Assembly: GCA_048938445.1 (NCBI GenBank)
Contig: JBHLME010000104.1
Coordinates: forward strand, 1-16,108
Direction of reading: 5' to 3'
Source: Promethearchaeota archaeon
GTDB taxonomy: Archaea > Asgardarchaeota > Lokiarchaeia > Sigyniarchaeales > SOKP01
DNA length: 16,108 nucleotides
Shown: positions 2,640 to 15,716 of the stretch, piece by piece
Position numbering within the stretch: position 1 is the first letter of the stretch
How the letters are laid out: each line of letters begins with the position of its first letter
Position numbers and translations under genes: made by a program
Notes under the pieces: generated by a model
What the model saw: the letters and a program-made list of their open reading frames with translations, nothing else
Databases searched by the model: none
What the model was told of the DNA's origin: nothing

Positions 2640-3527
2640 TCATTTATATCTGATATTTTTTATTGCTTCTCTTAAAATTCCAAGAATTTTTTCCCGATAC
2701 ATTGGTTCAATTGCCACCATTGAATGGAACTTAATATTTCTTCCTCCTTTAGAAAGAATTTTTTCACAAAATTCAGGTGTCAATCTATTTGATAAATCTT
2801 GTTTATTTGCAATCCCAATTACTAATTTATTTTTATAATGCTTTTCTAAAATATCTTGTATGATCTCTTTAGATGAATTTAAATTTTCAAAAGTAGAATC
2901 TGTTACTAAAAGTGCTATATCAGTACCATCTAGAAGACTTCCCCAGAGTGACCGGAAATTACTCTGTCCTGCAAAATCCCAAAATGTGATATCACGATGC
3001 AAGTTAGAATCTAAGTTGCCCCCATCAAATGAAGTGATATCTGCAGTAATAGTTGGTATATATTCTAAATTTATATCTTTTCCACAGATTAAATGAAGTA
3101 AAGACGTCTTCCCCACCCCACCAAGACCGATTATCGAAATTTTTATTGAACCTAAGACAACATTATCAACTTCTTTATGAAAATCTTGGAAAATTGCTCT
3201 ATTCCCCGCCCATTTATTGTCTTTAAGTACATCTTTATATTTCTCTATAAATTTATTCTTAATTGTTGCTATCTTGGGATTTATAAGATTATCATCATCA
3301 TCAAGATCGGCACATACAACTATAATGAGATTGTCAAAAATAGTATAATAATATTTATTGTCTTCAGTGGCGGTGTTTTTTATATCAGATTGTGAGATTT
3401 CTTTCATGAAACCTGAAAATGCACTTAAAAATCCTGCTAATAAGTCTCGGTCTACATCACTTTCTCCATAATTACGGAATAGAAGAGATTTACCATCTTT
3501 TGTAAGGATATTGATATATTGAATCAT
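2640..3527 (-). CDS. Longin-domain + Ras-superfamily small GTPase fusion
   Basis: The N-terminal ~125 aa have a longin-type pattern (IxILTKDGKSLLFRNY...DxDLLAGFLSAFSGFMKEI...LIIVVCAD). The C-terminal GTPase has G1 GLGGVGKT, G2 YIPT, G3 WDFAGQ and G4 NKQD; G5 is degenerate (MVAI). Confidence 0.85.
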   Translation of the reverse strand: MIQYINILTKDGKSLLFRNYGESDVDRDLLAGFLSAFSGFMKEISQSDIKNTATEDNKYYYTIFDNLIIVVCADLDDDDNLINPKIATIKNKFIEKYKDVLKDNKWAGNRAIFQDFHKEVDNVVLGSIKISIIGLGGVGKTSLLHLICGKDINLEYIPTITADITSFDGGNLDSNLHRDITFWDFAGQSNFRSLWGSLLDGTDIALLVTDSTFENLNSSKEIIQDILEKHYKNKLVIGIANKQDLSNRLTPEFCEKILSKGGRNIKFHSMVAIEPMYREKILGILREAIKNIRYK

Positions 3528-3677: not shown

Positions 3678-4301
3678 GTGTTTAATAAGGAGTCACAAAT
3701 GACAGATACAAAAGATTTGAATCAAGAAGAGATTGAAAACATTTTAATTGAGATTAACGGAAAACTAGAAAATTTTTCTTTAATTCTACAAAACTTCGGA
3801 TTAGATTTGATAACAAAATTAGGAAAAAATGAATCAAAACTTACTATGCTTACAGATAAAATTGAGAATCTTGCGAAAGCAACTTTAGATATTAAAGCAT
3901 TTACACCAATATTAAATAAAATAGTAGATCGGCAGAAATCAATAGAAAGTGAGTTAGATTTGTTGAAATCTTTAATACAACAATCTTTACAAATGAGGAA
4001 AACAGGTAAGTTAAATGAGAGTTTAATTAAAAGAGATGAATCAATAACCAATAATTTTGAATTAATTAAACAAAATTTTGAGAATTTTAAAGAAGAGATT
4101 GATAAAATAGAACAAACTGAAAAAGCTAAAGAGATCCTAATCAAAATAAGAGAAGATATTTTTGAATTAACTGGAGGACATCGAATTCTTTATGAAATAG
4201 CGCAAGTTATTAAATTATTGGAGGATAAAATTCCATTTGATGATGAATTAAAAACAATTTTAAGGGATAAAATAGGATTTTGGATGAATAAATTAAAATA
4301 A
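3678..4301 (+). CDS. Hypothetical helical/coiled-coil protein (probable start ATG 3699)
   Basis: 207-aa ORF with genome-typical codon bias and heptad-like L/I/E/K content. AAGGAG at 3687-3692 precedes ATG 3699, which is a more likely start than the listed GTG. Confidence 0.7.
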   Translation: MFNKESQMTDTKDLNQEEIENILIEINGKLENFSLILQNFGLDLITKLGKNESKLTMLTDKIENLAKATLDIKAFTPILNKIVDRQKSIESELDLLKSLIQQSLQMRKTGKLNESLIKRDESITNNFELIKQNFENFKEEIDKIEQTEKAKEILIKIREDIFELTGGHRILYEIAQVIKLLEDKIPFDDELKTILRDKIGFWMNKLK

Positions 4302-4326
4302 AACAAAATTTTAAGGAATATTCATA

Positions 4327-4641
4327 ATGGTACAATTCAAAATTGGTGAAGAACACGAAGGAGATTATACCTGTGATGATTGTAGATCATTCATAGATGG
4401 ATTTTGTTACAGATGGTCCTTTCCAATCCAAAGTAATCATATTCCCTGTACAAAATTTAAATATCAAAAAAAAATTGAAGAAGAAATAGATCTATCAACT
4501 ACTCCTAACGAAAAGTCCTTATTACAGGATTTTTTCCGAGAATTAAGAAAAGCTAATAAAGAAATTGATGGAAAATCCTATCTGGAGATATATACTACTT
4601 TTGATGAATTAATAAATAAGTATGCTCAAAGGTTACTTTAA
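4327..4641 (+). CDS. Small hypothetical protein with putative Cys4 metal-binding N-terminus
   Basis: C-x2-C-x7-C-x13-C pattern (CDDCRSFIDGFCYRWSFPIQSNHIPC). Starts 25 nt after the previous gene on the same strand, so probably co-transcribed. Confidence 0.65.
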   Translation: MVQFKIGEEHEGDYTCDDCRSFIDGFCYRWSFPIQSNHIPCTKFKYQKKIEEEIDLSTTPNEKSLLQDFFRELRKANKEIDGKSYLEIYTTFDELINKYAQRLL

Positions 4642-4689
4642 AATTTTCTTTATTAGTTTATGGTACAAAAAATAAGGTAAAAGATTTGG

Positions 4690-5287
4690 TTACGATTTTA
4701 CTTTTGATTGCCGTGTAATTTCGGCCATTTTTTTAAAAATATTTTTTACATTATCCCCCGTCTTTGCGGACGTTTCATGATATGCACAATTGAGTTTATC
4801 GGCCAAATGCTCCGCCATGGGTTGGATAATTTTTCTTTCATCCTTTAAATCAATTTTATTACCAATTAAGACACGTGGAATCCCACTAAGACCATATTTT
4901 ACAGCAGTATTATACCAATTTTGAACATTTGAAAATGTACTACTTCGTGTAATGTCAAATACAAGCATCATCCCATCTGCTCCATTAAAATAAGGGCGAT
5001 GAAGCATGTAAAACTGAGGTTGACCTGCTATATCCCAAATCATCAAATTAACCATAATTTTCTCGCCCTTTTCCTCAACCTCAACAATTTCCTTAACGAT
5101 ATCTGCACGCCTATAACGCCTGTGTTATAGACGTTGTGCCTACCGTTGGAATGTATTGAGTCTTGAATTTTTTCGAAGAATATTTATCTAGAAGCGAGGT
5201 CTTACCTACTTGAGGATCTCCAACAACTATGATCTTATAAATCACTTCAGTTCTTCCTTCGAAAACGATTTCTTCTTCTCCGGACAT
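4690..5287 (-). CDS. Rab-like small GTPase split by a 31-nt insertion; predicted spliced CDS complement(join(4690..5102,5134..5287)), 188 aa
   Basis: ATG at 5287 reads MSGEEEIVFEGRTEVIYKIIVVGDPQVGKTSLLDKYSSKKFKTQYIPTVGT, containing G1 and G2. This part is absent from the ORF track because it stops at TAG 5113-5111 after 58 aa. The downstream frame reads IVKEIVEVEEKGEKIMVNLMIWDIAGQ...NKID...ETSAK (G3, G4, G5). Exons of 154 + 413 nt give 567 nt = 188 codons + stop. Confidence 0.92.
5103..5133 (-). other. Putative 31-nt bulge-helix-bulge (tRNA-endonuclease-type) intron in mRNA
   Basis: mRNA reads AACGGUA-G-GCAC-AA^C-GUCUAUAAC-ACAGGC-GUUAUAGGC-GUGC-AG^A-UAUCGUU. This gives a 7-bp exon-exon stem, a 4-bp central helix GCAC/GUGC, two 3-nt bulges (AAC, AGA) on opposite strands and a 9-bp intron stem with a 6-nt loop. 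Cleavage after the second nucleotide of each bulge removes 31 nt and restores the frame. Confidence 0.8.
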
Positions 5288-5553
5288 TTTTTCTTTTTCA
5301 CAAGTTATTTTTAATTATATATGAAAATAAGAATAAGCATTTTTAAGAATTTCTATATCTTTATTTTAACGATTTAAGTTTTCATTTTTTTTATTTTATT
5401 ATTGTAATTATTGTTTATTTTTAGAATTATTAATTAGTCATTTTTCAGAATAAAAATAAAAAATGCTTATTATTCTATGTATCAAGAAATTTAATAAGAG
5501 AATAATTCATATAGAATTATACTCATGTATAAACCAAGAAGGTATAAAGATTC

Positions 5554-8124
5554 ATGAATGAAAAAATCAAAGAATTTCTAAAAGAAGGAAGAGTTGCATT
5601 TTTTTTAGGGGCGGGTATTTCAATGATTCCTCCATCATGTCTACCCAGCTGGTGGCAAATAAATCACGCAATTCTTGATTCCTTAGCCGATGAAGGTGCT
5701 GAAATCGTTCCAGAATTAAGAGATTTAGCTGAAATGATTAAAAAAAGGGAGGAAGAAGGAAGATTACCCCCAGAATTTGTAGCTGAAATCATTACAAATC
5801 GAATTGGAAAATCTTATTTCGAAGTTTTACAAGTCTTAGAAGGAGATACACCTAATTTAGCACATTTGTGGTTAGCAATATTAGCTAAAGCAGGATTATT
5901 AAAAGCTATCATTACCACCAATTTTGACACGCTAATAGAAAAAGCTTTTGAGAAAATTGGAGTTCCCCTAAAAGTTCTTGTCAATTCTAGAGAGTATGAA
6001 AATATAGAAAAATTTGAAGATTCAAAAGAGCCGTGCATGTTATTGAAGTTACATGGTACTGCCACCCTCCCTGATACATGTATTGACACTTTAGCCCAAA
6101 GAAAACGTGGATTGCACCCAAACATTACTCAAGCATTAGATTATATTGGAACTCGGACATTTTGGATCTTCTTAGGATATTCTGGAGCAGATTTAGAGGC
6201 AGAACCTAATTATCTTGGGATACGTCATCGGATGAATAATTCACCTGGATTTGCCTGGTTACACTTGCCAGAAAGAGATCCCCTCCCTGTTATTTCAGAA
6301 CTAGCTAATTTATATGGAGCAAATAGGGGATTAATAGAACATGGAGTTTTACCGGATTGGTTAGATGAATGCAAAAACATTCTTCCGGAAAATGTTCAAG
6401 CTCCAAAGAGCATTATCCTTGCTGGAGAGAAAATTCAACAAATTAAAAATGAAAAAAGTGAATATATCCAAGAACATGCTCTTAGTTGGGCAAAAAAGCA
6501 AGGCAGTGCTGAATGTGCTCTAATACTTTGTGATATTGGTGTTGATTCTGGTTTTTACGATATAGCAAGATCTATATTATTAAAACTGCACGAAGGAGTA
6601 GGAGAGTTTACGTTAACTCCGATTGGAAATGCTTTAGTTTGTCAACTTTTAGGTGAAATATCAAGAAGATTTGGAGAAATGGAAAAAACCTTGAAGTATC
6701 ATCAGGATGCGGCGAAATATTTTCAAGAAGCTAATAATCTTGAAGGATATCATGCGTCTGCACAAGATATTGCAAACTTAAAATGGCAATTTGGATATTT
6801 TGAAGAAGCTGAAAAAGATTTATACAATATTATGGAATATCATCAAAAAGTTAATGATAATGAAGGTCATGTTCATGCGTTATTAGATTTAAGCAACTTA
6901 TATCGAGAAACTGATCAATATCAAAAAGCGATGAATTTATTAAACGATGCAATTAAAATAGCAGCTAAAAATGGTCTTGAAATACTACGGGCACACGGTA
7001 TTTTAGGAAAGGCACTAATAGAAAGTGAATTGGGAGAAATGGAAGATGCTGAGAATCTCGTATTAGAATCTATAGATATATATACACGGTTGGGAGATGA
7101 CAATTTCTTATCGGAAGCTTCAAGAGAGCTTTCACAAATTCATTTCAAGCGTGGAGAAATTCAAGAAGCACTAGATATTCTTGAAAAATCTAGACAAAGT
7201 GCAATTCTAGTTGGAAACAAGTCCAGAATTATTAGGGCTGAAAGGGTAAAGGGAGAATACTTATTAAAGTTAGGAGAATACAACGAGGCAGTCTCCGTTT
7301 TAAACAATTCATTGAAAAAGGCGAATGAACTTGGAGATTTTATTCTTATCATCACAATTATGCAAAGTCTTGGATTAGCTCATCAATCACAAGGTAATGT
7401 TAATGAAGCAAAATCAATATACCAGGAAGCCATAAACAAGGCAGAAAAAAATGGATTAGATGTAAAAGCTGCAGGAATAAAAACTAACTTGGGAATCATA
7501 TTGGAACAAAGTGGTGAGGTTGAAAATGCTTTACATAACTATGAAGAAGCAGATAAGGTTTTCAAGCGCATGGGCATATTAGAATCGATTGCAGGATCTC
7601 AAGGAAATCTAGGGAACATTCATTTCCGTTTAGGGAATTACGCGGAAGCCCAAAAATACTATGAAGAAAGCATGAAGATTGCTGAGAAACTTCAAAATAT
7701 TGATGTTGTTTTAAGAACTAAGTATAACATCGCGAATGTGGTATTACAGTCAGGAGACATGGAAGGAGCGAAGATGCAATATCAACAAGCAATCGACTTA
7801 GCTAAGAAATATGAACAAAAGGGATTAAAGGACATGTTTCAAATAAATTATGCGGGTCTTTTATTTCAATTGGAAGACTATCATCCAGCTTTAGAACTTT
7901 ATGGAAATGCTTACGTTTCTTGTATCGAACGTAAGGATTATCTACAAGCCGGCACAGCGATCTATTATGCTGGTTTATCTTATTTCCGTTTGAATGAAGT
8001 GCAAAAAGGCATTAAATTATTAGAGGAAGCTATTGACACGTGGAAAATGCTTGATGAAGAACCCCCGCAACTAGCTGAAGCTCAACAAACATTAAATTCG
8101 GTAAGAGAACAATTAAACTCATAA
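5554..8124 (+). CDS. SIR2-like (SIR2_2 type) domain fused to a long TPR array
   Basis: N-terminal sirtuin-like motifs FLGAGIS, ITTNFD, LLKLHG and FLGYSG. From about residue 320 there are about 12-13 TPR-like repeats with a 40-aa period (e.g. NLGNIHFRLGNYAEAQKYYEESMKIA). No Walker A motif was seen. Confidence 0.88.
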   Translation: MNEKIKEFLKEGRVAFFLGAGISMIPPSCLPSWWQINHAILDSLADEGAEIVPELRDLAEMIKKREEEGRLPPEFVAEIITNRIGKSYFEVLQVLEGDTPNLAHLWLAILAKAGLLKAIITTNFDTLIEKAFEKIGVPLKVLVNSREYENIEKFEDSKEPCMLLKLHGTATLPDTCIDTLAQRKRGLHPNITQALDYIGTRTFWIFLGYSGADLEAEPNYLGIRHRMNNSPGFAWLHLPERDPLPVISELANLYGANRGLIEHGVLPDWLDECKNILPENVQAPKSIILAGEKIQQIKNEKSEYIQEHALSWAKKQGSAECALILCDIGVDSGFYDIARSILLKLHEGVGEFTLTPIGNALVCQLLGEISRRFGEMEKTLKYHQDAAKYFQEANNLEGYHASAQDIANLKWQFGYFEEAEKDLYNIMEYHQKVNDNEGHVHALLDLSNLYRETDQYQKAMNLLNDAIKIAAKNGLEILRAHGILGKALIESELGEMEDAENLVLESIDIYTRLGDDNFLSEASRELSQIHFKRGEIQEALDILEKSRQSAILVGNKSRIIRAERVKGEYLLKLGEYNEAVSVLNNSLKKANELGDFILIITIMQSLGLAHQSQGNVNEAKSIYQEAINKAEKNGLDVKAAGIKTNLGIILEQSGEVENALHNYEEADKVFKRMGILESIAGSQGNLGNIHFRLGNYAEAQKYYEESMKIAEKLQNIDVVLRTKYNIANVVLQSGDMEGAKMQYQQAIDLAKKYEQKGLKDMFQINYAGLLFQLEDYHPALELYGNAYVSCIERKDYLQAGTAIYYAGLSYFRLNEVQKGIKLLEEAIDTWKMLDEEPPQLAEAQQTLNSVREQLNS

Positions 8125-8178
8125 AAATAGCAAGAATGAGAGAATCTGTTAAATTAGATCCTGTAAATATAGTACTTA

Positions 8179-8724
8179 TCATTTTATTTTTAATGAGATA
8201 GTTTTTTCGACTTGAAACTTTGATTTCTTTTCATTCTTACGAGAAATAAAAAAAATTTTTTTTAATTCGAACTTTGTACTGCTCCAAGAAGTCTGTAGTT
8301 CCCTCATCAAACTTATCATAGTATCTCTCCCATTAACTTGTCCAACACTCAAGTGAGGAGTAAAGCCACCTTGGTGCTTGTTAACATCATTACAATCAGG
8401 GACAATTTTTAATAATTCTAATTGAAATTCTTTTAAGGAACTTATAGGTTCGGGCTCAAGCCAGATGGTATAATGTTCATGATGGTGATGAAAAAACTTA
8501 AAATTGTTTAATTGTAATTCAAATGGTTCGATAATCGTGCAAGTCTCTGAAAAAGTAGATTCAAGTGATATAAATTCTGATTTAGGCCTAAAGGGATATA
8601 ATAAATTAATGTGAGGCATCCATCTATTGATTTGACGGTCATACTTTTTTCTAATAACTTGAATTGGTTCCCAACATGAACGTGGAGGAATGATCACGAC
8701 TGCTGAAGTATATACCTTGCTCAT
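8179..8724 (-). CDS. 2H phosphoesterase (2'-5' RNA ligase/cyclic phosphodiesterase superfamily)
   Basis: Two H-x-[ST]-type motifs at typical spacing: variant WMPHINLLYPF and FTPHLSVGQ. Length is 181 aa. Confidence 0.88.
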   Translation of the reverse strand: MSKVYTSAVVIIPPRSCWEPIQVIRKKYDRQINRWMPHINLLYPFRPKSEFISLESTFSETCTIIEPFELQLNNFKFFHHHHEHYTIWLEPEPISSLKEFQLELLKIVPDCNDVNKHQGGFTPHLSVGQVNGRDTMISLMRELQTSWSSTKFELKKIFFISRKNEKKSKFQVEKTISLKIK

Positions 8725-8770
8725 TATATGATTATAATAAAGTTATTATGTTTTATATTGTATACATATA

Positions 8771-9283
8771 ATGAAAATGAATATCAAGCAAAGACACTTT
8801 ATTAAGAGTTCAGAAATAAAATCGCTAAAAGCAGATATTTTAAAACAGTATGACAATGAATTTATTGACCAAATTATCCCAAACAAGGCTCGGATTGAAG
8901 TCATTTACACGGAGGCTGGAGACACCTTATACGCTATTAATGGAGAGTTAAAACTTTGGAAATCTATGGAGGGATACATTCCAGTATTAACATTGCTTTT
9001 AAAAGGAAAGATAAATATAAAAACAGTTATCGTAGATATGGGGGCCATAAGGTTCGTGACAAATGGTGCAGATGTAATGCGTCCGGGAATTACAAAAATC
9101 GATCCATCCATAACCAAGGGAGATATCGTGAAAATCGCTGATGAAACCCATGGAAAGACCTTAGCAGTAGGAAAAGCATTGTATGACGCAGATGAGATGG
9201 AAAAAATAACAAAAGGGAAAGTCATTAAAAATCTTCATACGATCAAGGATTCTGTTTGGAATTTTTCTAAAGAGTTTAAATGA
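8771..9283 (+). CDS. Pre-PUA (DUF1947-like) + PUA RNA-binding protein, archaeal MCTS1/Tma20-like
   Basis: Characteristic VIVDMGAIRFVTNGADVMRPGI, followed by GDIVKI...LAVGKA and GKVIKNLHTIKDSVW. N-terminal RHFIKSSEIK. Confidence 0.92.
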   Translation: MKMNIKQRHFIKSSEIKSLKADILKQYDNEFIDQIIPNKARIEVIYTEAGDTLYAINGELKLWKSMEGYIPVLTLLLKGKINIKTVIVDMGAIRFVTNGADVMRPGITKIDPSITKGDIVKIADETHGKTLAVGKALYDADEMEKITKGKVIKNLHTIKDSVWNFSKEFK

Positions 9284-9579
9284 ATTCTTTTAATAAAATG
9301 TTTTTATAATTCTCTTTATCCTTCTTATTTAATTCATTAACGTCAGTGCTCATTCGATTATAATAATCCGGATCGCTTTCACTCATTTAGTATAGAATCC
9401 TTTTTCCTGTAATTGCTAATCGCAATAAATACCTTGCTAAACTAAGTTTTAAAAAAGAGTAAAGTCATTTAAAATAATAGATTTTGTCGTCTTGTTGCTT
9501 CGATCATTACGAACGTTATAAAAATTTTAATAATTACTTTTATAGCTTATAAATGCAAACCATTAGAACATGATATAAA

Positions 9580-9888
9580 CTATTCAATTGCTTTTTTTAT
9601 GATTGAATAAGCAACATGTTTTTCATTTGTATTTAGATCATTTATATCTTTACCAGAATAATCATACTTGTCAATATTTCTATCATGATACAAGCAAGCG
9701 ATTATCAGCATGGCATTTTGAAAAAAAACTTCGCTTTCTATTTCACGTGTAACTTCAATGAGTTTGTAAATAGAATCTTCGAAGAAATGATCTTTAGTTT
9801 CAGCATCAAGGTTCTTTTCTAGTTGTAAGTAGTTGTTAAAAACGAATGAATAAAAATCATATTCTCTTATCACTTTTTTTAAACACAC
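9580..9888 (-). CDS. Hypothetical protein
   Basis: 102-aa ORF with a GTG start and no overlap with other genes. No recognisable motif; start uncertain. Confidence 0.5.
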   Translation of the reverse strand: MCLKKVIREYDFYSFVFNNYLQLEKNLDAETKDHFFEDSIYKLIEVTREIESEVFFQNAMLIIACLYHDRNIDKYDYSGKDINDLNTNEKHVAYSIIKKAIE

Positions 9889-10082
9889 CCCTTCAACATT
9901 TTATTAAATGCAAAAAAAAAATATAACCGACGAATATCATTACGACTAATTTAATTTTTAAATGCATTATTTTTAGATTTTAGTCCGTGTTAGTGGTACG
10001 AACAAATATTTGATATAGTTTTGTTAAATCAGATTCTTAAAATACTAATTCTAATTAAAAAAAAAAATGATTTAAAAAAAAT

Positions 10083-10601
10083 TTAGTGAGTTTTAGAGTA
10101 AGAAGGGTATCTCTTTTCTAGTTCAGCTTTCACTTCTTCATCCGTCTTAAGTTTAGTAAATAAACTATAGCACAATACTCCACCAATGATGATTAAAAAT
10201 GGATCAATATAGAGCCCCAATCCATTCATCGGTATAGGATGAATTCCACCAGAAATTACGCTTAGATCAATAACCCCTATTGGTATATTTATACCTATTA
10301 TTGCGATAACTCCAAAGATTATGCAAATAGCACCTCCAATTAGTCGATTTTTAAATGAAATGATCGCTCCACAAAGTGCTCCTAATCCAAGAAATAATGT
10401 CACACCTCCTGTTATGTACAACAACGAGTGATCGATCCCTAATGAAGTCCAACTTTCCCCTGCTAATAGAATTAAAATTTCCAATGTGCCTAATATTCCA
10501 AATACAGATAATCCTCCTAATGATAATAATATAGCTCCAATCATTGCAACTATAGGACCAATTTTTGATTGGTAAGGTTTTAATGTATTTTTCTTATTCA
10601 T
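10083..10601 (-). CDS. Hypothetical membrane protein (about 4 TM helices)
   Basis: Four Gly-rich hydrophobic segments and a charged C-terminal tail. Confidence 0.75.
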   Translation of the reverse strand: MNKKNTLKPYQSKIGPIVAMIGAILLSLGGLSVFGILGTLEILILLAGESWTSLGIDHSLLYITGGVTLFLGLGALCGAIISFKNRLIGGAICIIFGVIAIIGINIPIGVIDLSVISGGIHPIPMNGLGLYIDPFLIIIGGVLCYSLFTKLKTDEEVKAELEKRYPSYSKTH

Positions 10602-11045
10602 TATTTAGACCTCTCAAATAAATATTGTCTTTAAGTATATAAATTTGCAGACTATTTAAATATTAATGGTAAATGATTGAAGGTTCTTGGATGTATACTA
10701 TAAACCATACTCAAACAATTATATTTAATCACTTATTTTATTTCTTATAATTTTTGTAGGGTATTTTTCCAGTAGAAATAGACGTCTAGTAAGTTCTTTT
10801 TTGTTTTTACTATAATTTTTTTTACTTTTTCATTTAAATATGATTTTTCTCATCTCTTAATCATGATAAGGCTGAGTAATACGAGAAATATCGTGAAACA
10901 TAATAAAAAGATCGCATATTATGCAGATATAGCCTGAATAATACTCGATTTCAAAAATTAACATCGACTTGTATTACTTGGATATTAGTATTAAGGGTCA
11001 TGACTGGTATATGTTAATGATTCTTAGAAAATATGAATAAAATAA

Positions 11046-11372
11046 ATGGGTGTATGTGTTAAAATGAGCATGTTTAGGAGTTATTTACTAAAAAACAATT
11101 TTTGGGCAAAAAAGGGAAATGAAAAAGATCCAAACAATTCTGAGAAAGTTTATATCAAACACAATGAAGTCGTTGGCGGGATTTGGGCGATCATTGAAAA
11201 TAAACCAGATAGAAAAGGCGTGAAAATCATCGTAGAAGGCCTTGAATATTTTTTCAATAACTTTGATAAATTAGATGCGTTTCTCAATCGATTAGAACAA
11301 AAGCAAAATGATTTCATGAGAATAGTTCGAAGGCGGGATATTAGCCATAAATTGAGAACTTTAGAAATTTAA
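11046..11372 (+). CDS. Hypothetical protein
   Basis: 108-aa ORF with plausible globular composition. Several possible start codons; no recognised motif. Confidence 0.6.
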   Translation: MGVCVKMSMFRSYLLKNNFWAKKGNEKDPNNSEKVYIKHNEVVGGIWAIIENKPDRKGVKIIVEGLEYFFNNFDKLDAFLNRLEQKQNDFMRIVRRRDISHKLRTLEI

Positions 11373-11557
11373 ATTAATATCGTTTGAAGAATTATTTTTA
11401 AGTTTTAATCATTTAGCTTATTAAATTAGAATATTTCAAGAAGTTTGTCAAATTATTGATAATTTTATAAATAAATTCTTCAATAGGTATGAATTAAAGA
11501 TAGCATTCCTATTTTAATTATCTACCAAATATATTAAAATATTGAGGAAAAAAATGA

Positions 11558-12094
11558 TCAATCATCCAATTCCGTAGAAACTATAGTTCTCATTCCTAAA
11601 ATCAACATTATTAATGCTGAGGGCAACATTATCATGAAGATGAAGAGATCTATAAAATTTTTCGTTGTCATTGGGAATTCTAAATTATAAATCATTAGCT
11701 GATAATCGAGAGGATCAAAACTTGATATGTTTAATAATATTGGATAAATAATTGAATTGGTGACCAATTGCAAAATTGCGATTAATAATATAATGAAAGA
11801 ACATAGCATAACTATTTTATTAATATTTTCTTTCCTTATAGATTTCCATAGTTCAATCATTAATGTAATTGAACTCACGGGAATTAATATTAATCCAAGA
11901 TAATATATTGATATGATTAAATATATTATCGATTGACCAATTAAGAAAAGAATCTGATCTCCTATTTCTATAACTCCCGGTGTGGTATAAGCAGATGAAA
12001 GAAGAGAATTTGTCATCCAATTTAAAGAAATGTTAATCATTACCAATAGAAACAAGATTATAGATAATATTTTAGAAATATTTGATTTATTCAT
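11558..12094 (-). CDS. Hypothetical membrane protein (about 4 TM helices)
   Basis: Four long hydrophobic I/L-rich segments. Confidence 0.7.
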   Translation of the reverse strand: MNKSNISKILSIILFLLVMINISLNWMTNSLLSSAYTTPGVIEIGDQILFLIGQSIIYLIISIYYLGLILIPVSSITLMIELWKSIRKENINKIVMLCSFIILLIAILQLVTNSIIYPILLNISSFDPLDYQLMIYNLEFPMTTKNFIDLFIFMIMLPSALIMLILGMRTIVSTELDD

Positions 12095-12273
12095 ATAATT
12101 TCATCTTTTATAACTTGAGAAAACATGTTAAAAGAAAAATCTAAAATGTTTTATTACACAACTGAGATTTTTCATTTTTATATATGATCCTTAAAAAATG
12201 AAAGTCTTCATTAAAAACTAAAGGATAAGTGGATAATAACCCATTTAACATGCTATACGATTTGTTTTTCAAA

Positions 12274-13083
12274 TTATAAAGTCAAGATGAGCCTCTCAAT
12301 ATCCAATACTTTACTAGCGAGCCTTATAAATACAAGACATAGGACGCTAATAATTCCGGCAATTATTATAATGATAACAGGAGAAAGAAATGCGGGATTG
12401 ACCATTTGAACGAAAAAAAGCCCAAAAAGAGGGACAATTAATGAACCCCCAATGCTTTGAGCACTTTTTACTGTCTTTACGCGAGAACTAATGATCACGT
12501 TTATTTGTATGAATAAAAAAGAAATTAAAGGAGATATGAGAAATCCTATTAATAAATCGGATAAATCCGTGAAAATTAAGAGATTTCCGTTTAAGTATGA
12601 TAAAAACATTAGATTAGTAATTAGTCCTAAACCAAAAAAACACAAAATGCTGATAATCAAGGAGGGAATAAATGAGGTCATTACTTTCCCGAGTATCAAC
12701 TCTGTTTTAGTTATTGGCAACAAGGCTAAATTTTCCATTGTTTTTCTTTCTTTTTCACCCGCAAATGAGTCTGCAGAGATAAAACTTGAGGTAAATCCAG
12801 GAACAAATAAAAAGAAGGGAATTACCATCCATTTAATCATGAATATTGCTGCCTGTAAATGCACATCATAATGGGAAATATTAAGGAGTACAATAAAAGT
12901 ACTAGCACCAGGATATTCTGCCAAAAAGGTAAAAGGATCAACGAGTGCCGCAATCATCATAAAAACAGGTAAAAATATCGTGAAAATCATTGGTAATATT
13001 ATTACTGCCGCTAATATTTCTTTATTGCGTATTGTTCCTTTCCAGTCCTTTCTCATAATCTTCCAGCTATTTATCAAGTTCAT
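12274..13083 (-). CDS. ABC-2 type transporter permease
   Basis: About 6 TM helices and the motif ADSFAGEKERKTMENLALLPITKTELILGKV. Lies 12 nt downstream of the ATPase gene. Confidence 0.92.
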   Translation of the reverse strand: MNLINSWKIMRKDWKGTIRNKEILAAVIILPMIFTIFLPVFMMIAALVDPFTFLAEYPGASTFIVLLNISHYDVHLQAAIFMIKWMVIPFFLFVPGFTSSFISADSFAGEKERKTMENLALLPITKTELILGKVMTSFIPSLIISILCFFGLGLITNLMFLSYLNGNLLIFTDLSDLLIGFLISPLISFLFIQINVIISSRVKTVKSAQSIGGSLIVPLFGLFFVQMVNPAFLSPVIIIIIAGIISVLCLVFIRLASKVLDIERLILTL

Positions 13084-13095
13084 TTTAATCCATCC

Positions 13096-14064
13096 TCACT
13101 CCTGTTGATTTTGCATCAATTTAAGATATATATCCTCCAATGAATGAATGGTTCGGTTAATTTCTAGAATCCTAGCATTTGAATCTACCAATTCTTTCAC
13201 GATCAATGGAGTTGTCTCATCAGCGTCCCTTGAATAAAAATAAATTTTATTATCATCAATTCGATATTGATCGATATAATTTAAGCGAGATATTTTTTCT
13301 TGAATTTCTTTTGATACAGGTGATACAAGAGTGCAAACCATTTCTTGGGTTTTGAAAAGATCATTCCTAAGTTCTGAAGGTGTACCTATACGTTTTATTT
13401 GTCCTAAATCTAAAATTGCTACTCGATCACAAATTTTTTGGACTTCCTCTAAATTATGTGAATTTATGAAAAGTGTTCGATGCTTTTTTTTTAAACTTAG
13501 AATTAAATCTCGAACTTTTACAGATGCAATAGGGTCAAGACCAGAAGTAGGCTCGTCAAAAAATAGAATTTGAGGATCATGTAAAAGTGCTCTGGCTATT
13601 GCTAGACGTTGTTTTTGCCCTTTTGACAACTTTCCTGCTTTCATGTCTTTTCTTTTAATTAGGTCTATTTCTTGGAGAACTGAATCTATTCTCTTTTCCA
13701 ATTCTCCTGGTTCAATGTCATAAAAGCTGCCAAAAAACCGCAAGTTATCATGAACTGAAAGATATTCATAGTTACCATGGTTCTCTGTTAAAAATCCCAT
13801 GTTCTTTCTTAATGAATGTTCTTGTTTTTTCAAGTTTTCTCCATTAACAAGAATGTTTCCTGCGTGTGGTTTCAATAATCCTGCGATACATCGAATGGCC
13901 GTGGTTTTTCCCGCGCCATTAGGACCAAGCAAACCAAAGATCTCACCTTGTTTAACCTCAAAACTCACGTTATTTAAAGCCCAAATCTCACTTTCTTCTT
14001 CCGATTTACTTTTTTTATTGTAAAATACTTTTGAAAGGTTCTCGACCTTGATTACTGACTCCAT
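13096..14064 (-). CDS. ABC exporter ATP-binding subunit (multidrug/ABC-2 type)
   Basis: Walker A GPNGAGKTT, signature LSKGQKQR, Walker B ILFFDEPTSGLD, H-loop NSH and C-terminal SLEDIYL. Confidence 0.96.
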   Translation of the reverse strand: MESVIKVENLSKVFYNKKSKSEEESEIWALNNVSFEVKQGEIFGLLGPNGAGKTTAIRCIAGLLKPHAGNILVNGENLKKQEHSLRKNMGFLTENHGNYEYLSVHDNLRFFGSFYDIEPGELEKRIDSVLQEIDLIKRKDMKAGKLSKGQKQRLAIARALLHDPQILFFDEPTSGLDPIASVKVRDLILSLKKKHRTLFINSHNLEEVQKICDRVAILDLGQIKRIGTPSELRNDLFKTQEMVCTLVSPVSKEIQEKISRLNYIDQYRIDDNKIYFYSRDADETTPLIVKELVDSNARILEINRTIHSLEDIYLKLMQNQQE

Positions 14065-14166
14065 AGTATAAGTAAAAGTTTATTAATTATTATAATTATA
14101 TAAGATAAATCAAGTTATTAAGATATTTAACATAAGATAATCAAAAAAAAAGAATAAATTAAAATA

Positions 14167-14745
14167 TTAATATATTTTTGAACCACAATTTTCACAGAAA
14201 TTAACATCTTGAGCCAATTGATGACCACAATACACGCAGAAGGTCTTTCCTTCTGAAGCAATTGGAGCTATGATCTTTTTCGAAGGAGGTTCATAATTTT
14301 CAGCAGGAGCATACGAAATGCTTTCTCCAAGGATTATTTCTCCCGTTTCAGCATTAAAGCGGTATCTTATTTTCCCACTATTACGTAAGACTAAAAGGAC
14401 TCTTAACACATCCTTTGGTTTAATTCCAACTTCAAGAGCTATGTCCTCTAGTTTATATGTTCCCTGCCCCCGGGAGATTATGGCCGCTTTAATTGCTTGT
14501 TTATACCTACTATTGGTATATATCTGTTGGAATCCTCCGATAAAGATAAAAAAAGCTGGTATGAACATCCAAAACCCCCAAGTGCGTAAGGAAAGGAAAC
14601 CATTATCTAAAGCATGAAGTACTAACGATAGAATCGCAACAAATAAAAAAACTCCTGCACAACCAAACGAGCCTGCTGCTGCTTCATAAGATTTATCCGA
14701 ATAATATCTATGTCTATATTTTTCCTTGTCTTCTTCCATTGTCAT
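14167..14745 (-). CDS. Membrane protein with two TM helices, a winged-helix-like region and a C-terminal zinc ribbon
   Basis: Two N-terminal hydrophobic helices, an HTH-like segment YKLEDIALEVGIKPKDVLRVLLVLRNSGKI and C-terminal FCVYCG-x8-FCENCG. Confidence 0.75.
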   Translation of the reverse strand: MTMEEDKEKYRHRYYSDKSYEAAAGSFGCAGVFLFVAILSLVLHALDNGFLSLRTWGFWMFIPAFFIFIGGFQQIYTNSRYKQAIKAAIISRGQGTYKLEDIALEVGIKPKDVLRVLLVLRNSGKIRYRFNAETGEIILGESISYAPAENYEPPSKKIIAPIASEGKTFCVYCGHQLAQDVNFCENCGSKIY

Positions 14746-14864
14746 ATCATTAAAATTAATTACTAATAACTATTAAAATGAAGAAAGTAAATTTAATTTT
14801 AAAAATTATTGTAGTCCAAATATTAGGAAAAATTAATGCTGTATTTTTTAGACCCTCAAGCTTG

Positions 14865-15716
14865 TTATATCTCATACTTTAAATAAAAATGAACTTTAGG
14901 ATTACTTAAACGGAAATCTTTACTAACTGAATCTAATATCATTTCAGTCTTACCTACGACTAGTAATCCTTGAGATATTAAGTGTTCTGACATCATTTTA
15001 AGAACTTTACGTTGAGAGTTTTGATTAAGATAAATTAAAAAATTTCTACAAAAAATAATATCATATTTTTGATTGAATTGATGTCCCTCAATCAAATCTT
15101 CTTGAATAAATGTTACTTTCTTTTTAATCTCATCATTTATTATGTGTTTAGAACTTAATTTACTTTTTTTTCCTGTAAAATATGATTTATAAATAATAGG
15201 TAACTCATGAATAGAATAGTTACCATACTTTCCTTTTTTTGCCATATTGATGGCGTTAATATCAATATCAGATGCGAAAATTTCAATGTCTGGAATATTC
15301 TTATTATATCTTTTAAGATAGTCAAACATCATTGCCAAAGAATAGGGTTCTTCACCTGTAGAACACGGAGCGGACCAAATTCTCAAAACATCTTGATTAT
15401 TTCTTTTAATTTTACGATTAAGAAAGTCCGACATAAGAGCTTGATATACTTCATAATTCCTAAAAAAATAGGTATAATTTACGGTAAAAAAGTTGCTAAA
15501 ATTATTAAATTCTGATGGGGTTCTTAAAATATATTCAAAGTATTCTTTATCTGACTTTAGATTTAAATTATGAATTCGGGTTTTTATTTTTCGTTCTAAA
15601 AATTTCTGTTTATAACATTTAACATTTATTTTAGTAGATTTACGTAAATGATCAATTAAAAATTGAATTGATTCTGGGTGAAGACTAATTTTATCTATAG
15701 CTGATTCTGCTAACAT
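14865..15716 (-). CDS. cheR: CheR-type protein-glutamate O-methyltransferase
   Basis: Motifs YKQKFLERKI, TVNYTYFFRN, RIWSAPCSTGEEPYSLAM, IFASDID, YDIIFCRNFLIY and GLLVVGKTE. Confidence 0.93.
   Translation of the reverse strand: MLAESAIDKISLHPESIQFLIDHLRKSTKINVKCYKQKFLERKIKTRIHNLNLKSDKEYFEYILRTPSEFNNFSNFFTVNYTYFFRNYEVYQALMSDFLNRKIKRNNQDVLRIWSAPCSTGEEPYSLAMMFDYLKRYNKNIPDIEIFASDIDINAINMAKKGKYGNYSIHELPIIYKSYFTGKKSKLSSKHIINDEIKKKVTFIQEDLIEGHQFNQKYDIIFCRNFLIYLNQNSQRKVLKMMSEHLISQGLLVVGKTEMILDSVSKDFRLSNPKVHFYLKYEI

Follow-up and report, generated by a model that had tools for sequence, protein, structure and literature searches.

A Ras/Rab-like GTPase gene on the minus strand of a Lokiarchaeial contig (5287-4690) is split by 31 nt at 5133-5103, and we think it highly probable that this insert represents a bulge-helix-bulge (BHB) intron of the tRNA type, spliced constitutively by EndA and RtcB, which was gained sporadically and is tolerated rather than kept as a dedicated switch. 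The structure of the insert, its exact borders, the intact and constrained exons on both sides, the genes for both enzymes and the recurrence of such inserts in related genomes are laid out below, together with the alternatives. By the window we mean the whole stretch of DNA that was analysed, 16,108 nt in length.

One GTPase domain in two pieces

The unspliced ORF (5287..5111, minus strand) encodes 58 aa ending ...PTVGTTSITQAL-stop, and its in-frame UAG at 5113-5111 lies inside the insert. On this ORF the Pfam profiles Ras and Roc match residues 18-56, corresponding to profile positions 1-39, and the downstream frame (5106-4690) takes up the match with Roc positions 40-119 and Ras positions 44-158. 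As the profile is continued across both frames, we read them as one GTPase domain in two pieces with no part lost. The gene is divided as follows.

5134..5287, minus strand: exon 1, from the ATG at 5287 through codons 1-51 and base 1 of codon 52 (ORF list, Pfam and in-silico splice)
5103..5133, minus strand: putative BHB mini-intron, 31 nt, phase 1 (orthologue alignment, BHB geometry and composition)
4690..5102, minus strand: exon 2, from the last 2 bases of codon 52 to the stop codon (translation, Pfam Ras 44-158 and in-silico splice)

The insert stands in phase 1 within codon 52 (Asn), four codons past the switch-I Thr of PTVG, and its G+C content is 52% as compared to 35% in the exons. Exon 1 contains G1 (P-loop) along with the switch-I Thr, and G3 (DIAGQ), G4 (NKID) and G5 (ETSA) are all found in exon 2. 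In-silico splicing at the predicted cuts joins 154 and 413 nt into a reading frame of 188 aa with 0 internal stops, and the joined product is identical to the uninterrupted same-genus orthologue of genome G002 at 182/188 positions in an ungapped alignment. Along this product the motifs follow in order, with G1 at residue 23, PTVG (holding the G2 Thr) from 47, G3 at 75, G4 at 133 and G5 at 161. Close homologues carry the NCBI name 'Rab family GTPase', assigned to Promethearchaeota archaeon or 'Candidatus Lokiarchaeota'.

We fetched 29 orthologue loci (L031-L059) from 61 related genomes; none of the 29 is interrupted, and their open frames span 174-217 aa. Across the break, the sequence of the four same-genus orthologues is YIPTVGTNIVKEIVE, with PTVGTNIVKE at the site itself. 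An Rfam scan and a tRNA scan of the window gave no matches. The neighbouring ORF104 (4327-4641) had no family match, and its Atlas matches, all below 0.9, serve as leads only.

A relaxed bulge-helix-bulge motif

The insert with its surroundings, 81 nt in all, folds to -24.3 kcal/mol, whereas shuffled sequences reach -10.7 +/- 2.4 (z -5.66), and 0/200 shuffles folded as well. In this MFE fold the exons pair with each other over 7 bp, and the insert forms a hairpin of 11 bp. A BHB conformer of -23.8 kcal/mol lies no more than 0.5 kcal/mol from it, with the following predicted elements listed in the order of the transcript.

5141..5147, minus strand: outer helix h, 5' strand (exon 1), pairing with 5095-5101 over 7 bp including one G-U
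5136..5139, minus strand: central helix H, 5' strand, GCAC (exon 1), 4 bp with 5105-5108
5133..5135, minus strand: 5' bulge AAC, predicted cut 5134/5133
5109..5132, minus strand: intron hairpin h', whose stem of 9 bp (5124-5132 paired to 5109-5117, one G-U) carries a 6-nt loop at 5118-5123
5105..5108, minus strand: central helix H, 3' strand, GUGC (intron), from BHB re-pairing
5102..5104, minus strand: 3' bulge AGA, predicted cut 5103/5102
5095..5101, minus strand: outer helix h, 3' strand (exon 2), from the fold and BHB re-pairing

The 7 bp of the outer helix are extended by 4 further bp beyond a 2-nt bulge. A G at 5140 is left unpaired opposite the 3' bulge, and due to this extra base the motif is a relaxed hBHBh' and not a strict one. 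The antisense strand folds to -16.9 kcal/mol only, as the stems contain G-U pairs that are present in the sense RNA alone.

Three registers are available to the 5' bulge, ACA, CAA and AAC, with energies of -23.6, -23.5 and -23.8 kcal/mol, i.e. within 0.3 kcal/mol of each other, and the 4-bp central helix is given by the AAC register only. In the ensemble this register is in the minority (pair C30-G58 at 0.18 against C33-G58 at 0.82). Its cuts are on the other hand the only ones that reproduce the orthologue sequence, and the border is unique, with 0 as the only equivalent shift. For the intron of cbf5 the cuts fall between bulge bases 2 and 3, as given in the accessible text of the source (PMC2738675); the same rule applied here places them after 5134 and after 5103, which are the borders set by the orthologues. 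By its modelled geometry the insert at 5133-5103 is a BHB-type substrate.

Several statements of the initial annotation can be followed up at this point. It held that the unspliced mRNA makes only a 58-aa peptide and that a functional GTPase requires removal of the insert, and both hold true, the first from the ORF, its UAG and the Pfam halves and the second from the orthologue alignment and the 188-aa product of exact 31-nt removal. We likewise find the insert just past the switch-I Thr region where it had been placed, recover all three proposed bulge registers, and agree that one alone yields the 4-bp helix.

Nine further inserts in relatives

With the intact orthologue of G002 as query, a search of 154 genomes from the order gave about 119 matches at 63% identity or higher (the listing being counted by hand). 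Six of these orthologue-level matches had in-frame stops and were 24-30 nt longer than their neighbours. The source genome (G000) came out as a partial match, as did G122 at a contig start and with a lower score, and G014 had been partial in an earlier search. The window intron is lacking in 4/4 same-genus orthologues and in the great majority of the about 119 orthologue-level matches, about 80 of the listed orthologues being outside the fetched set.

Eight other genomes of the same family were found to hold nine more mini-inserts of 30-38 nt, distributed over four sites of which one is that of the window.

Site a, K/IIVIGD, ahead of the P-loop: G115, 30 nt
Site b, PTVGV/N, same base position and phase as in the window: G072, 30 nt
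Site c, DIAGQ/PQFY, in switch II: G014, 33 nt; G074, G106, G068, G152 and G122, 30 nt each
Site d, HKPY/FNGADG: G014, 38 nt

Every insert contains stops or breaks the frame, and seven of these genes are otherwise intact with all motifs present. The G122 copy is cut at the contig start, so that it comprises the part after site c only, and the G014 gene was read in three-frame translation only. Altogether 9/135 genomes of the family carry inserts: 1/6 in the genus of the window, 5/54 in g11, 2/42 in g2 and 1/1 in g10.

In 10/10 inserts the homology-defined borders coincide with the BHB cuts, where the borders of the relatives were placed by protein alignment in knowledge of the BHB model and the spliced product fixes the border uniquely in five of the ten, leaving 1-2 nt of slack in the other five. 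The central helix has 4/4 bp in eight inserts and 3/4 in two, and the inner helix ranges from 2 to 9 bp. When the borders were slid by 1-8 nt in either direction, a 4-bp central helix was formed in only 0-1 of the ten, and a looser test was passed by 0-3. Covariation is seen in the central helix at two of the sites. At site b the helix is GCAC:GUGC over a Thr codon in the source genome and GCGU:GCGU over a Val codon in G072, and at site c it is GGGC:GCCU in G014, GGAC:GUCU in G106 and G152, and GGAC:GUUU in G122.

Ten checked genomes with no orthologue-level match had paralogues at 45% identity or lower only, plus a decayed copy in G080. Nine paralogous GTPase loci with internal stops (L078-L086) displayed point stops, upstream stops or decay, and no inserts. 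A LigT-like 2H gene is situated near several of the intron-bearing loci (20/35 loci searched; the window copy is at 8188-8724), which we regard as ordinary synteny.

Other copies in the source genome and an insert in rtcB

A blastn-short search of the source genome for a second copy of the window intron returned chance matches of at most 17 nt only. We also scanned this genome for BHB motifs whose removal merges ORFs. Strict thresholds gave 59 candidates (60 with one extra base allowed) as compared to 73 for a mirror-motif control, and relaxed thresholds gave 2097 as compared to 2114, hence no excess in either case. It should be noted that the strict thresholds miss 8/10 of the known inserts, which makes the genome scan insensitive, and a tolerant BHB finder proved too noisy for this AT-rich DNA. 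The only other strong GC-rich candidate, on contig C38, was inside an intact 425-codon ORF and was rejected as false. Within this insensitive scan the window intron appears to be the sole one of its kind in the genome. Pattern scans of two public collections, which may omit the source genome's own records, returned one match each, in a Treponema MAG (genome_contigs) and a TARA scaffold (metagenome_contigs); both had unrelated flanks and were discarded as chance.

The search for RtcB in the 135 genomes of the family yielded five matches that started at profile position 47-48. We fetched three of these rtcB genes, from G034, G152 and G017 and thus from three genera, and each has a 29-nt insert between GGVGY and DINCG that forms a perfect BHB with UUGG:CCAA and a 9-bp inner stem (3/3).

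Splicing enzymes and proposed mechanism

The source genome comprises 4.63 Mb in 256 contigs, with 96.5% completeness and 8.2% contamination. It contains two genes of the EndA family (PF01974; contigs C26 and C80) and one RtcB gene (PF01139; contig C28), all above the curated cut-offs, and its rtcB is uninterrupted. The available text of PMC5829648 describes Asgard EndA as an (alpha-beta)2 type with an L1 loop that permits relaxed BHB motifs. No homing endonuclease family was detected among the neighbouring ORFs of the window and of seven intron-bearing loci, and an intron of 31 nt is too short to encode an endonuclease.

On the basis of the motif and the enzyme genes we propose the following course of events. 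In the pre-mRNA the exons would pair as the 7-bp outer helix and the GCAC of exon 1 with the intron GUGC as central helix, so that the two 3-nt bulges, AAC and AGA, would present the cut sites and the remainder of the intron would form the 9-bp hairpin. The two-subunit EndA of the host would cut between bases 2 and 3 of each bulge, whereupon RtcB would join the exons, restore codon 52 (Asn) and give an mRNA for the 188-aa GTPase; transcripts left unspliced would yield the 58-aa fragment only. Since the insert has to be removed exactly, has the shape of a BHB substrate and resides in a host with both EndA and RtcB, synthesis of the GTPase would depend on non-spliceosomal splicing with ligation of the RtcB type. 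Cleavage and ligation in vivo, as well as removal that is constitutive and not regulated, are what we infer from this arrangement. The intron would be one of a sporadically gained set, found at four sites in the GTPase orthologue and also in rtcB within the same archaeal family, and would be tolerated because it can be spliced.

In archaea translation can begin on nascent RNA, and splicing and translation would hence compete. This competition, along with the minority status of the BHB register, could leave splicing incomplete. Further, we speculate that Lokiarchaeial mobile BHB mini-introns repeatedly colonise hairpin sites that encode motifs (the P-loop flank, switch I, switch II and the next strand of the GTPase, and GGVGY/DINCG of rtcB), that this is ongoing, and that splicing efficiency against co-transcriptional translation sets the GTPase dose. 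We hold this wider proposal tentatively, as a serious possibility falling a little short of probable.

Selection, turnover and the question of regulation

The dN/dS ratios were calculated by the Nei-Gojobori method on in-silico spliced genes, whose frames ran from stop to stop with a few upstream codons included, and should be read with synonymous sites near saturation. They were 0.03 for G000-G002 and 0.07 for G074-G068 (dS about 1.5), 0.035 for G000-G004, 0.03-0.09 among the other pairs of g11 and about 0.15 across genera. Judged from these ratios, the intron-bearing GTPase genes are under strong purifying selection. The site-c introns of G074 and G068 are clearly homologous, with 22/30 bases identical by eye, which, if they were inherited, means that constraint on the gene persisted in the presence of its intron. 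In the protein tree the terminal branch of the source genome is not lengthened (0.014 as compared to 0.013 and 0.022 for its sisters).

The tree had 37 rows, made up of 8 intron-bearing and 29 fetched intron-less genes; G122, truncated by the contig start, was left out. Site b requires at least two changes on this tree and site c at least three, and one well-supported clade joins G115, G072 and G106, which carry their inserts at sites a, b and c, respectively. Different sites in sister species together with the scattered presence argue for turnover and against a conserved regulatory design.

This pattern bears on the idea that removal is condition-dependent and switches the GTPase in the manner of XBP1/HAC1, with the slipping 5' bulge setting the efficiency. 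The three near-isoenergetic registers, of which the productive one is the minority, speak in its favour, and the GTPase output must scale with the spliced fraction, as the unspliced mRNA gives the fragment alone. However, the intron is missing from all same-genus and most other orthologues, equivalent introns occupy different sites in sister species, and the cut sites are BHB bulges. No match to the IRE1 RNase domain (PF06479) was found in the 96.5% complete source genome, a weak test in which the control genomes were also negative and no positive control was at hand. We consider regulated splicing improbable. The initial annotation had proposed that unconventional splicing controls the GTPase; the dependence on splicing is upheld by the BHB motif, EndA and RtcB, while the regulatory part does not agree with an intron absent from the closest orthologues. 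For the likeness to an XBP1/HAC1 on/off switch, which it also drew, we find no support on the same grounds, the look-alikes at four sites included.

Could the gene instead be a young pseudogene, with an unspliced 31-nt hairpin insertion whose BHB shape is incidental? The intron is lineage-specific and single-copy, and the source genome has one lineage-specific Tyr-to-His relative to the orthologues, just ahead of the ETSA motif of G5, that is readable as early decay. Loss might also be tolerable in a genome with 54 matches to the C-terminal part of the split GTPase, or about 54 small-GTPase paralogues, and decayed copies of the orthologue and of paralogues do occur in relatives (G080 and others). 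Still, we give this explanation little credence. No borders other than the BHB cuts bring back the ancestral codon. Comparably strong motifs number roughly 200 (about 110 strict, plus 96 relaxed with a summed helix length of at least 16) in about 1.3e9 position-and-length pairs tested genome-wide, and with such rarity a chance match at one given pair is very unlikely. Moreover, the nine other inserts in eight genomes share the same geometry in genes that are otherwise intact and have dN/dS of 0.03-0.09, whereas the true pseudogenes encountered show point stops and lost motifs and not BHB inserts.

That the insert is an assembly or sequencing artefact, absent from the DNA of the organism, we discount almost entirely. 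Some assemblers use a k of 31, the length of the insert in nt, and the sequence stems from a metagenome-assembled genome whose contamination is estimated at 8%. Nevertheless, a second build of contigs from the probable source run, which is not independent DNA, covers 4840-5900 with 0 differences, and identical N-terminally truncated proteins are recorded from contigs of 57,739 and 1,030 nt in addition to that of 16,108 nt. The stems contain G-U pairs and are hence not perfect DNA palindromes, and the same type of insert is present in eight other genomes from other assemblies. Among independent studies we found no contig bridging the intron, and of the runs listed as containing 4300-5900 none was of RNA.

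That ribosomes bypass the 31 nt in the way known from phage T4 gene 60, or shift frame in a programmed manner, is barely credible despite a stable hairpin right after the break with the stop codon in it. No pair of take-off and landing codons matches at a distance of 31 nt (ACA would land on GCA), the product would read Thr-Asp and not the Thr-Asn of all same-genus orthologues, a single frameshift is unable to skip the in-frame stop, and BHB geometry accounts for all ten inserts, among them those whose length of 30 or 33 nt keeps the frame.

Relation to known systems

The closest parallel to the BHB intron proposed here is that of the cbf5 pre-mRNA in Crenarchaeota (Desulfurococcales and Sulfolobales), as described by Watanabe 2002, Yoshinari 2006 and Yokobori 2009 (PMC2738675). 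In its available part, a paper from 2020 gives cbf5 as the only reported archaeal coding sequence with an endonuclease-spliced intron (PMC7714728), and nothing later came up in our literature searches. Both introns are short, lie in coding sequence, often have a relaxed BHB, take bulge bases 2/3 as exon borders and are gained and lost among relatives, and the cbf5 intron needs a hetero-oligomeric endonuclease. They differ in that our host is an Asgard archaeon and the gene a Rab-like GTPase of a eukaryote-signature family, hit at four sites across lineages as opposed to one position in cbf5. The splicing of cbf5 has further been shown experimentally, whereas the GTPase intron is predicted from DNA.

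In Haloferax volcanii a BHB intron is reported in the 5' UTR of the HVO_1309 mRNA, according to the available text of PMC7714728. As far as that text goes, the two cases share that an mRNA, and not tRNA or rRNA, is the substrate of the tRNA splicing endonuclease and that removal of the intron matters for expression. The HVO_1309 intron is on the other hand located in an untranslated leader, and its euryarchaeal host has an enzyme of the homodimeric type, whereas the present one breaks the reading frame.

For non-canonical tRNA introns of Asgard archaea, the accessible portions of two papers describe repeated and phylogenetically scattered gains with no known arrival route (bioRxiv 10.64898/2026.10.13.758758; PMC11291895). 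From what these portions contain, the GTPase inserts share with them the lineage, enzyme, motif, length range and pattern of scattered gain. The host gene is however protein-coding here, and the two papers report, in the same portions, tRNA introns only.

In XBP1/HAC1 splicing, IRE1 is activated by ER stress and cuts the loops of two stem-loops, and in animals RtcB ligates the ends. That RtcB has a role in XBP-1 splicing is stated in PMC8718801. The similarity to the GTPase gene consists of the predicted non-spliceosomal removal of a short frame-changing intron, the participation of RtcB, and an unspliced message that gives a different or shorter product. The substrate is nevertheless of the EndA-type BHB kind, with its borders in two bulges beside one hairpin and not in hairpin loops.

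We found no report of BHB introns in protein-coding genes of Asgard archaea in the literature searched, subscription journals and bioRxiv supplements being outside the search. What looks new is hence a tRNA-type intron in an Asgard eukaryote-signature GTPase, with such inserts at four sites of the orthologue across several genera and in rtcB as well. If confirmed by cDNA, it would mean that Asgard archaea splice mRNAs with the tRNA machinery, which would bear on how interrupted genes were dealt with in cells close to the origin of eukaryotes, and on possible reasons for keeping transcription and translation apart. If the mini-introns are indeed mobile, removal of protein-gene introns by tRNA machinery would be ongoing in the closest archaeal relatives of eukaryotes. 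For annotation there is a practical side, as genes of this kind are at present called truncated proteins or pseudogenes (P0001, P0002 and P0005).

Gene neighbourhood of the GTPase

The Rab-like GTPase gene lies in a three-gene neighbourhood (2640-3527, 3678-4301 and 4690-5287) that is conserved across the archaeal family, and in seven of the fetched relatives a gene of about 585 codons comes next after it. The features of the window in this region are:

2640-3527, minus strand: protein of 295 aa whose C-terminal part is a small-GTPase domain; its N-terminal 125 aa are unassigned
3678-4301, plus strand: 207-aa coiled-coil protein, no family
4327-4641, plus strand: Cys-containing 104-aa ORF between the coiled-coil gene and the 3' end of the GTPase gene
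4690-5287, minus strand: Rab-like GTPase
5554-8124, plus strand: 856-aa SIR2_2 and TPR protein, between the GTPase and LigT-like genes
8188-8724, minus strand: LigT-like gene

As the LigT-like gene is found close upstream of the GTPase in many relatives, we suggest that the SIR2_2-TPR gene may have been inserted, and that it is possibly of a defence type. Nothing corresponding to the 104-aa ORF was found in the 29 orthologous loci, and it has neither a paralogue in the window's own genome nor a family match. In contigs from the sequencing runs X1 (depth 90) and X8, 11 different nucleotides take the place of the sequence between 4327 and 4596, hence this stretch looks like an indel among the relatives.

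Decayed or stop-containing GTPase genes in related genomes

In genome G080 (contig C165, 9400-10800) the orthologue is missing the N-terminal third, and its NKxD and ETSA motifs are gone; this is a decaying copy and an example of a true pseudogene of the GTPase gene. In three paralogous small-GTPase genes, L082 (G064, contig C285), L078 (G069, C107) and L086 (G080, C168), the reading frame is broken by one or two point stops, and no bases are inserted; these are probably pseudogenes or sequencing errors.

Inserts in rtcB

A 29-nt insert was found between GGVGY and DINCG of the RNA ligase gene rtcB in three Lokiarchaeial genera (L087, G034 contig C3; L088, G152 contig C2; L090, G017 contig C222), and its bulge-helix-bulge motif is perfect, with UUGG:CCAA pairing and a 9-bp inner stem. 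The rtcB genes of G129 and G021 gave the same partial-match pattern as these three genomes, as seen at match level, the insert itself having been read in L087, L088 and L090. G152 bears both the rtcB intron and the one in the GTPase at site c (switch II, DIAGQ|PQFY).

tRNA genes

On contig C215 of the window's own genome ARAGORN predicted 26 intronless tRNA genes packed into about 9 kb (approximately 6480-15105), while outside this array introns were present in 24 of the 36 predicted tRNAs. The array may be viral or foreign, or may represent contamination.
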